Virus record (IMG/VR): IMGVR_UViG_2875697941_000001
From: a virus
Lineage: Duplodnaviria; Heunggongvirae; Uroviricota; Caudoviricetes
Direction: 5' to 3' (one strand)
Length of the DNA: 64,000 bases
In this document: positions 2,247-3,311 of the stretch, piece by piece
How the letters are laid out: every line of letters starts with the position of its first letter
Numbering within the stretch: the stretch's first letter is position 1
Program-made: the position numbers and the translations under genes
The notes under the pieces: model-generated
What the model was told of the DNA's origin: nothing
Seen by the model: the letters and a program-made list of their open reading frames with translations, nothing else
The model's database searches: none

Positions 2247-2786
2247 CTACCACCAACTGCTAGCTTTCTTCTCTCTAGCTTTTCCTTCGCTTTGCAGTAA
2301 ATCTTTACTTCCTGTAGAAATATTTCTATTTGCATCAGCCTCAGACTGAATTACATCTGTCTTAGCTGCTCTCTCCTTCAACTCCTGCTCTATAAAATCG
2401 TTTTCTCGCTGGACACGAGCCGCTTTTGCTTGCAGTTCGAGTTTCATGCTTTCGAGTTGCAGCTTGCGAAGCTCATCCTCATAAGCTTGATCTCGCTTCT
2501 TGTCATTTGCTAGCTCGGCTTCTCGTTTCGCTCTACGTTCATTTTCTGCAGCAACACGCTGTTTTTCGCGTGCAGCAGCGGCAGATGCTGCTTTTTCTCT
2601 TCTAATACGTTCAGCTTGTGCTTGTTGGCGAATAAGTTCTTTTCTGGCATCCTCAGCTTGCTGCTCTTTAGCTCGCCCTTCATTTTCCGCTTGAGCAATA
2701 GCAGCAATTTGACTTTGCAACGAGTTAGCCAAGGCAGTGCCTACACTAAACGTAGAAAAGATTAGAAATAAAATAATTTTATTCAT
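2247..2786 (-). CDS. secreted coiled-coil protein with TolA-like Ala/Glu/Arg/Lys-rich repeats
   Basis: N-terminal signal peptide (MNKIILFLIFSTFSVGTALA), then long charged helical repeats (AEDARKELIRQQAQAERIRREKAASAAAAREKQR...). Confidence 0.45.
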   Translation of the reverse strand: MNKIILFLIFSTFSVGTALANSLQSQIAAIAQAENEGRAKEQQAEDARKELIRQQAQAERIRREKAASAAAAREKQRVAAENERRAKREAELANDKKRDQAYEDELRKLQLESMKLELQAKAARVQRENDFIEQELKERAAKTDVIQSEADANRNISTGSKDLLQSEGKAREKKASSWW

Positions 2787-2789
2787 AAA

Positions 2790-3311
2790 TTATTTCTTTT
2801 CTGGACAAGTAGCATTTGGCTGAATTCGAGTTTCATTATCTTTAGTTGAAATAAGCACAGCAAGCCCCGTTGTAAACTGGCATGCTTTACCAACTTGAGT
2901 TGAAGTGAACACCTTAGTTCCTTCTTTATAAGTCAGTGAAACACCTTCAACAATTGTTTTATCACTAACCAAAGAACCAGCCGCTGCACCAAGAGCCGCA
3001 CCACCAGTACCGCCAGCTACAGCACCCAGTGTCGATGTGCCTTTAACATTATAACCGGCAACGCCCCCAGCAACAGCTCCCAGTACCGCACCAAATGTCT
3101 GTGCCGCTTCTTTATTAGCTTTATTATCAACTTTCACTTTAGCTGGAAGCACAGAGATAATATTGACTGTCTTTGTTTCCTGCTTCGAATTCAATTGAGC
3201 GGTATCATAAACATCGGCAGCATAATCAGCACCGCTAGATTGACACCCAGAAAGAAGAATTGCAGATACAACAAGAGCGCATAAAGTATACTTTTTAGAC
3301 ATAAGAATCAT
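2790..3311 (-). CDS. lipoprotein with glycine-zipper motif
   Basis: Lipobox LLSGCQ after signal sequence; Gly-zipper GAVLGAVAGGVAGY...GAVAGGTGGAALGAAAG; 4 nt upstream of the TolA-like gene. Confidence 0.5.
   Translation of the reverse strand: MILMSKKYTLCALVVSAILLSGCQSSGADYAADVYDTAQLNSKQETKTVNIISVLPAKVKVDNKANKEAAQTFGAVLGAVAGGVAGYNVKGTSTLGAVAGGTGGAALGAAAGSLVSDKTIVEGVSLTYKEGTKVFTSTQVGKACQFTTGLAVLISTKDNETRIQPNATCPEKK

Follow-up and report, generated by a model that had tools for sequence, protein, structure and literature searches.

A two-gene cassette related to the bacterial yfgH-yfgI envelope module in the sim slot of a P7-type P1-like phage-plasmid

We analyzed two adjacent minus-strand genes in the IMG/VR virus record IMGVR_UViG_2875697941_000001, within a stretch of 64,000 nucleotides (nt) that is referred to here as the window. 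The window is a P7-type P1-like phage-plasmid, and its DNA between positions 1500 and 4200 is 98.7-99.5% identical to that of P7, RCS47, SJ46 and phi456. Both open reading frames (ORFs) were present on the minus strand, at 2790-3311 and 2247-2786, and the pair is 100% identical to the P7 proteins Upf50.5, a lipoprotein, and Upf50.0, a protein of the DUF5384 family. Judged by sequence, the pair can be identified securely as a diverged version, carried by a phage, of the SlyB-type envelope module yfgH-yfgI of bacteria. It occupies a variable slot that in P1 holds the simABC genes. The pair is the P7-type allele of this slot, and we give about even chances to the explanation that it is a two-gene moron, an accessory unit with transcription of its own, that causes lysogenic conversion by reinforcing or remodelling the outer membrane. 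Some of this was already known: the pair has been annotated in P7 for two decades, in a record that lists one as a lipoprotein and the other as a membrane protein, both without assigned function and resembling E. coli K-12 proteins, and the host family was known as well. New here are the exact allelic relation to sim, the frequency of the cassette in P1-like plasmids, the repeated capture of the pair by unrelated temperate phages under purifying selection, and the strict pairing of DUF5384 genes with lipoprotein genes.

Two exported proteins and their host homologues

The lipoprotein was 67% identical to E. coli YfgH over 171 amino acids (E value 6e-73), and the DUF5384 protein was 47% identical to YfgI. 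The chromosomal yfgH-yfgI genes were found in 5,420 of 5,426 complete E. coli genomes, with approximately 69% nucleotide identity to the cassette. The two genes and their predicted parts are as follows.

2790-3311, minus strand: gene for a predicted outer-membrane lipoprotein of the YfgH/SlyB family (173 amino acids as annotated)
3246-3302, minus strand: lipoprotein signal peptide, residues 1-19 counted from the ATG at 3302 (read from the sequence; a signal peptide is also annotated in P7)
2970-3122, minus strand: glycine-zipper helical hairpin, approximately residues 61-111, predicted to be membrane-inserted (AlphaFold2 secondary structure and Pfam)
2247-2786, minus strand: gene for the secreted helical partner, of the DUF5384/YfgI family (179 amino acids; Pfam DUF5384)
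2727-2786, minus strand: cleavable signal peptide of the partner, residues 1-20, ending in ALA with N next (read from the sequence; the P7 record annotates the same position)

The true start of the lipoprotein gene is probably the ATG at 3302, which gives a product of 170 amino acids, since the homologues begin at that position. The annotated ATG at 3311 would lie 9 nt too far upstream; the ATG at 3302 gives a standard signal peptide and a better-spaced GGGA, a Shine-Dalgarno-like sequence. From ATG 3302 the N-terminus reads MSKKYTLCALVVSAILLSGC, containing the lipobox LSGC with its Cys codon at 3243-3245 and a Gln at position +2. The predicted lipid attachment residue is Cys20, and there is no Asp at +2, a residue that usually holds E. 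coli lipoproteins in the inner membrane. The lipobox, in the form L[SAT]GC-Q-S, was kept across 120 homologues, and the Cys was invariant in 72 homologues. The original prediction for this locus, made from the sequence without database searches, had described an exported glycine-zipper lipoprotein, and the description was borne out by the lipobox and by a profile of the 72 homologues, which matched SlyB over its full length with an E value of 6.8e-10. The Pfam Gly-zipper 2TM match on residues 74-112 was sub-threshold (E value 0.0023, 18.2 bits against a cut-off of 24.2). Sequence searches of the PDB with the single proteins gave nothing useful, SlyB being found by the profile search alone. With the predicted structure, the top Foldseek match was SlyB 7ojf_A (E value 2.5e-6, probability 1.00, template modeling (TM) score 0.66). 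AlphaFold2 predicted a beta strand, a two-helix glycine-zipper hairpin and a beta-domain, as in the YfgH/SlyB family, and placed the two helices of the monomer, at low confidence, at residues 61-85 and 92-111. The naming of these proteins in phage databases is misleading. PHROG 1277 calls the YfgH-like lipoprotein a 'DNA methyltransferase', a misannotation that was passed to RefSeq phage records; misannotations occur in NC_050152, NC_031129, NC_042128, NC_019445 and OR339795, and the phi456 record names the two proteins 'minor tail protein' and 'tail tip protein'.

The second protein matched Pfam DUF5384 (PF17358) over residues 39-179 with an E value of 3e-43 and 147.8 bits against a cut-off of 25. 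Its signal peptide is MNKIILFLIFSTFSVGTALA, after which the sequence continues with NS, and the mature protein has 159 residues, of which 41% are charged and 19% are Ala. AlphaFold2 predicted a single continuous helix from residue 3 to 178, with a predicted local distance difference test (pLDDT) value of 87.5; a fully helical mature protein would be approximately 24 nm long. There are very few strong hydrophobic residues in positions 21-95, and a heptad-like core is found at approximately 91-135. Both ends of the protein are conserved and the middle of the helix is variable. An aromatic pair (WW, WF or FF) lies at or just before the C-terminus throughout the family, and in the window protein it is WW. 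The original prediction had this gene encoding a secreted, TolA-like repeat protein. The secreted, helical, charge- and Ala-rich character of the protein was upheld, and the kinship with TolA and the repeats were not. There was no TolA match in Pfam at E values up to 0.1, the signal peptide is cleavable where TolA has an anchor, and the globular C-terminal end is missing, so the likeness to TolA is limited to an Ala- and charge-rich helical composition. As for repeats, Tandem Repeats Finder and a repeat search returned only a 15-nt blip of 2.4 copies and chance pairs.

We scanned for DUF5384 loci using one genome per species and obtained 68 loci, which span Enterobacterales, Pasteurellaceae, Aeromonadales, Pseudomonas, Vibrionaceae, Shewanella, alpha- and beta-proteobacteria and Campylobacter. 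A gene for a YfgH-family lipoprotein lay immediately upstream on the same strand in 65 of them; the remaining three consisted of two contigs shorter than 340 nt and one weak hit. The same gene order held in all nine of the contexts that were compared separately. By this measure of linkage the DUF5384 protein is an obligate partner of the YfgH-type lipoprotein. The nearest chromosomal relatives of the window DUF5384 protein were only 53-55% identical to it, and in sequence terms the mobile pair is a separate, long-diverged clade. Escherichia sp. E1V33 has two copies of the pair on different contigs, with DUF5384 proteins 50% and 46% identical to that of the window, suggesting that one copy is chromosomal and the other acquired.

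YfgH was characterized only in a late-2025 preprint, in which it fractionated with the outer membrane and stabilized it (bioRxiv 10.64898/2025.12.22.696046). Loss of YfgH leads to sensitivity to sodium dodecyl sulfate plus ethylenediaminetetraacetic acid and to vancomycin, and worsens lptD defects (bioRxiv 10.64898/2025.12.22.696046; PMC3219608). According to the same preprint, leaky expression of YfgH from a plasmid restores outer-membrane protein levels when LptD or BamA is depleted, a dosage effect; YfgH co-purifies with BamA, LptD, OmpF/C/A, LamB and TonB-dependent receptors; and its SlyB-like rings have been modelled only (bioRxiv 10.64898/2025.12.22.696046). For YfgI, mutants with a reported sensitivity to DNA damage are on record and nothing more. 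In Salmonella Typhi the orthologous genes are srgIL, an operon regulated by SdiA (PMC11619404). The mechanism of the phage pair had been expected to be uncharacterized, and this applies in part: given the homology to yfgH-yfgI, and since YfgH is a demonstrated outer-membrane stabilizer, the pair is not fully uncharacterized.

The sim slot and the recurrence of the pair

A comparison of the window with P1 by blastn placed the breakpoints at 2218/2219 and 3594/3595, and P1 matches within 1500-4200 were confined to the two flanks. The P7-type segment between these points, 2219-3594 (1,376 bp), exactly replaces simABC of P1 between the late promoter LPsit and the operator Op(c4), and its parts are an AT-rich upstream stretch of 283 nt, the gene pair and a 28-nt spacer. 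In P1 the equivalent interval holds simC, simB and simA, as annotated there, so that the original prediction was accurate in giving P1 sim genes at this place. The slot and its surroundings contain the following features.

2198-2217, minus strand: late promoter LPsit of the operon pmgC-tub-pmgB-sit; left boundary of the slot, outside the cassette (P7/P1 annotation mapped over)
2219-2246: short spacer behind the second gene, found only in this cassette (by blastn, the match to P1 begins again at 2218)
3312-3594: upstream non-coding region, AT-rich (approximately 32% GC), cassette-specific and absent from P1
3593-3609, plus strand: C1 repressor operator Op(c4), right boundary of the slot (consensus with two mismatches; annotated in P7)
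3670-3722: a1b1 targets of the C4 RNA (Rfam)
3791-3876: C4 antisense RNA (Rfam)

We surveyed the slot in approximately 496-509 plasmids with a tub-pmgC backbone. About one third of these (166-168) had this cassette, in every case with at least 99% identity; their sources were E. coli, Salmonella, E. fergusonii and E. albertii. The full simABC was found in 137, and the remainder had other content. A third allele (pKFu022_2, L023 3431-4616) encodes two signal-peptide proteins of 215 and 158 amino acids, the latter distantly YfjT-like, and a longer mosaic allele (L018 5032-9298) comprises a 107-amino acid membrane protein, the pair, a fragment of the 215-amino acid gene, a YfjT-like gene and a 394-amino acid SH3_3 protein. 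SimA, SimB and SimC all carry signal peptides. In addition, P1 SimA (52 amino acids; L002 3503-3661) aligns at 93% identity with residues 1-41 of the 215-amino acid exported protein, which is intact in pKFu022_2 (L023 3969-4616), and on this alignment simA looks like a truncated remnant and not a gene in its own right. Previous reports list sim among the low-GC variable regions, or recombination hot spots, of P1-like elements (PMC9603915, PMC6906374), and simABC is dispensable for plaque formation (PMC10695390).

Adjacency of the pair to the immunity locus, as originally described, was confirmed by the C4 RNA, its a1b1 targets, Op(c4), icd and ant, yet the pair is transcribed divergently from immI and not in the same direction. 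The C4 region is followed by icd, ant1/2, kilA and repL. A scan with the C1-operator consensus found three sites in the window against 0.27 expected; beside Op(c4), these were at 5264-5280 (the kilA/repL operator) and 21352-21368, with one mismatch each. A weak inverted repeat, 2197-2221 with 3620-3644 (25 nt, 72% complementary), lies at both recombination boundaries and is probably a chance occurrence.

Only 3 nt separate the two genes (lipoprotein stop codon at 2790-2792, DUF5384 start codon at 2784-2786), and a scan saw no terminator-like site between or after them. Co-transcription is therefore likely, and the original claim to that effect very probably correct. The promoter of the pair would have to sit within 3312-3594, where we found a single weak sigma-70-like site on the minus strand (-35 at 3578-3573, -10 at 3555-3550, 9 of 12 matches), with Op(c4) 15 nt upstream of this leftward -35. 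A promoter common to other carriers of the pair was considered and discarded, the upstream regions being unrelated. The pair is located upstream of the late operon and outside it, and no late-promoter element was seen before the pair in a by-eye reading of 3290-3620, for which no formal scan was made. Since the pair lies upstream of LPsit and no such element was seen, expression in the lysogen is plausible.

Within the phage database, carriers of the pair were limited to P7-type P1-like phages and TL-2011b. The latter was rejected as an independent carrier because its copy is host flank (yfgG-yfgH-yfgI). The 'complete' TL-2011b genome (JQ011317; L004 1680-3425) ends in host DNA with yfgG, a 153-nt ORF, yfgH and yfgI, and the prophage appears to have been integrated next to yfgI; it is because this record ends in host DNA that host genes sit in phage protein families. 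The mobile carriers of the pair seen in wider collections were the following, given with identity to the window (lipoprotein/DUF5384 protein, unless stated otherwise).

P1-like plasmids with this cassette: at least 99% DNA identity
Another P1-like allele, from E. albertii and E. coli, located in the same slot alongside additional genes: 88%/81%
P2-like-tail prophage in which the pair immediately follows the tail-fibre and DUF4376 genes and is convergent with them: 71%/69%
Salmonella phage-plasmid-like contig of 102 kb that also has genes for a tail fibre, exonuclease VIII and a Rep3 replication protein: 61%/44%
Enterobacter unclassified contig of 115 kb with a Tad2-like gene: 61%/40%

The P2-like-tail prophage carries the pair at two chromosomal sites, one beside yecD/aspS and the other within ompW, and because the insertion sites differ, the pair belongs to the prophage. 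In E. coli 52F4 (L017 18552-21140) the prophage lies in a truncated ompW, with an ORF6N-domain gene between the host flank and the pair. Two further copies were found in E. coli islands (95%/92% and 86%/78% identical). The first was rejected as an independent context: LPsit and the beginning of pmgC are still present in it, which shows its origin from a P1-like element. Neither the Salmonella contig (L021) nor the Enterobacter contig (L022) matched known phages in DNA similarity. Matches to PHROGs supported a phage-like character in the case of L021 only, and L022 stays unclassified. On L022, which is from E. hormaechei, the Tad2-like (anti-Thoeris) gene (1237-1716) is approximately 4 kb from the diverged pair, among small ORFs on the same strand.

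Between mobile copies, the ratio of nonsynonymous to synonymous substitution rates (dN/dS) was 0.06-0.10, with synonymous sites at or near saturation, and all family-invariant residues were retained in the pair. The most variable parts across copies were the signal peptides, the hairpin tip, which was also the most variable stretch of the lipoprotein by region, and the middle of the DUF5384 helix. The mobile copies are under strong purifying selection, and at least three temperate-phage backbones took up the pair and kept it. From the strict linkage, the presence on at least three phage backbones and the alternation with Sim genes, we conclude that the two proteins act jointly and that temperate phages profit from the module.

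Possible functions of the pair

The biochemical action of the pair is most likely the same as that of the host module, namely an outer-membrane ring lipoprotein with an obligate long helical periplasmic partner. We rank outer-membrane reinforcement in the lysogen first because it is the only explanation backed by experiments on a 67%-identical homologue, the dosage effect included. The lipoprotein would be exported, receive its lipid at Cys20 and move on to the outer membrane, where its glycine-zipper hairpin would insert and give SlyB-like rings enclosing outer-membrane proteins and patches of lipid. The DUF5384 protein would be secreted to the periplasm as a single helix of approximately 24 nm, and may attach to the periplasmic beta-domain of the ring and extend from there in the direction of the cell wall or the inner membrane. 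With the pair expressed from a promoter of its own, the lysogen would gain a second, diverged YfgHI system. The benefit may be resistance to envelope stress, for instance from detergents or chelators, and an envelope remodelled in this way could also hinder an incoming phage.

Several points weigh against this explanation. Lysogens already own the chromosomal yfgHI, so that an extra copy needs an argument from dosage or specificity. Expression in the lysogen is assumed, the promoter scan of the upstream region gave no more sites than shuffled sequences, and the one match is weak. The AlphaFold2 monomer of the lipoprotein has a mean pLDDT of 57.5 (70-80 in the beta parts, low in the hairpin). 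Our literature search for DUF5384, upf50.0 and upf50.5 found nothing. Finally, every allele seen at the slot encodes exported proteins, and the one that has been characterized, Sim, acts in exclusion.

This last point favors a second explanation, superinfection exclusion at the stage of entry in place of Sim, which we hold to be possible, though doubtful. Ring and rod would block P1-like or other phages at a step that follows adsorption, such as penetration of the tail tube or transit of DNA through the periplasm, or the ring would enclose outer-membrane receptor proteins and make them unusable. The pair occupies the simABC slot exactly, and according to PMC8546580, which cites the finding, Sim, with its three signal-peptide proteins, is reported to stop DNA of superinfecting P1 from entering. 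The third slot allele likewise encodes two exported proteins. In the P2-like-tail prophage, the pair stands directly after tail-fibre and assembly genes, which is the usual position of exclusion lipoproteins such as Cor. The outer-membrane proteins that co-purify with YfgH (LamB, OmpC/F/A and TonB-dependent receptors) are common phage receptors, and the hairpin tip, presumed to be surface-proximal, is the most variable part of the lipoprotein. There is also a precedent in TraT (PMC11733297).

The argument for exclusion is a positional one, however, and comparisons with known exclusion systems speak against it. The original prediction had proposed a check by BLASTP against P1 SimA, SimB and SimC, and this revealed no relation for either protein, the best E values being 0.3-0.65 over 30 amino acids. 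Its view that the two proteins are of a kind with known entry-exclusion factors found no support: PADLOC models have no family for either protein, and PHROG matches were limited to the pair's own families, 1277 and 1094, with no exclusion or lysis family among them. TraT membership was considered and rejected, as Pfam PF05818 scored 23.1 bits against a cut-off of 31, the profile comparison with 9e2v gave an E value of 4.1, and the Foldseek matches were non-significant (E value 0.07-0.2, TM score 0.18-0.27). The receptor of P1 and P7 is the core of the lipopolysaccharide, which a ring that corrals proteins would not obviously mask. In addition, the module is a conserved chromosomal housekeeping pair in Proteobacteria, so an anti-phage role would not be ancestral. 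With this evidence on both sides, we offer only tentatively the idea that phages have repeatedly captured yfgH-yfgI as a new kind of entry exclusion, in which a receptor- or lipid-corralling ring acts with a periplasmic rod of approximately 24 nm. If this were true, divergent alleles would set specificity, with the hairpin tip and the middle of the helix as likely determinants, and it would be the first function for DUF5384/YfgI. Reinforcement and entry exclusion are not mutually exclusive.

A role in the phage's own lytic cycle, in which the pair would hold the outer membrane until lysis or cut the loss of progeny on debris or vesicles, is improbable. The pair has the same direction as the downstream late operon with no terminator between them, and YfgH protects outer-membrane proteins in a compromised envelope. 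Against this, P1 has sim instead and grows normally, with simABC non-essential for plaques (PMC10695390); the by-eye reading of 3290-3620, which was no formal scan, saw no late-promoter element; and in the P2-like-tail prophage the late tail genes and the pair converge.

It is still less probable that the pair is hitch-hiking host DNA without function for the phage. That the slot is a low-GC recombination hot spot of varied content (PMC9603915, PMC6906374) would be in keeping with it. The dN/dS values, with synonymous sites saturated and every family-invariant residue kept, argue against it. So do the 166 plasmids from four species in which the cassette is intact, with at least 99% identity, and its acquisition by unrelated phage backbones.

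Least probable of all is a two-component spanin-like lysis device that fuses the membranes, to which a lipoprotein with a long helical periplasmic protein bears a superficial likeness only: the helical protein has a cleavable signal peptide (ALA, then N) and no retained membrane anchor, the lipoprotein of 150 residues with its membrane hairpin and beta-domain is unlike a short proline-rich o-spanin, PHROG gave no lysis match, P1 does without the pair, and the homologues are core chromosomal genes that stabilize and do not lyse. Homology to structural or lysis proteins, which the original prediction had named as the finding that would count against it, was not found; the homology is instead to host genes of envelope maintenance.

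Outer-membrane reinforcement thus heads the list, and what the pair does is of wider interest. P1-like phage-plasmids commonly carry resistance genes in E. coli and Salmonella, and an envelope-toughening or phage-excluding cassette in about one third of them could affect their persistence and the outcomes of phage therapy. The phage copy also provides a compact handle on what the yfgH-yfgI module does.

Comparison with known systems

Cor-type exclusion lipoproteins are often placed beside tail-fibre genes, and the pair is so placed in the P2-like-tail prophage. Cor (phi80/N15), Llp (T5) and lambda Bor resemble the lipoprotein in being accessory outer-membrane lipoproteins encoded by phages or prophages (compare the preprint 10.64898/2026.03.26.714494). 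They differ in being small single proteins that lack a glycine-zipper hairpin and a partner, and no PHROG links them to the pair. TraT of the F plasmid (9FS5/9E2V), which acts in surface exclusion and serum resistance, is likewise an outer-membrane lipoprotein with helical membrane anchors and a beta-sandwich and it forms rings, but it acts alone, without a DUF5384 partner. It is a chromosomal ring lipoprotein that plasmids have co-opted several times for surface exclusion (PMC11733297).

SimC, SimB and SimA share with the pair the slot between LPsit and Op(c4), export, and the status of dispensable accessory genes. They differ in having no sequence similarity to it and another gene number and architecture, and the literature gives an exclusion phenotype for Sim only. 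SlyB (7OJF/7OJG) has the same topology of strand, helical hairpin and beta-domain as the phage lipoprotein, at an identity of approximately 25%. SlyB forms rings, and the phage lipoprotein may do so too. The slyB gene is not known to be paired with a DUF5384 gene.

YfgH-YfgI (b2505-b2506; srgIL in Salmonella Typhi) shares with the phage pair its gene order, its sizes of approximately 170 and 179 amino acids and its near-zero spacing. YfgH and the phage lipoprotein have in common the lipobox, the glycine-zipper hairpin and a beta-domain with two conserved Cys residues, and YfgI and the phage DUF5384 protein have in common the signal peptide, the DUF5384 helix and the aromatic C-terminus. The two modules differ in their setting: the host pair lies next to guaA, whereas the window pair lies on a phage-plasmid in the sim slot, and since its upstream region is unrelated to that of chromosomal yfgH-yfgI, its regulation differs from that of the host genes.

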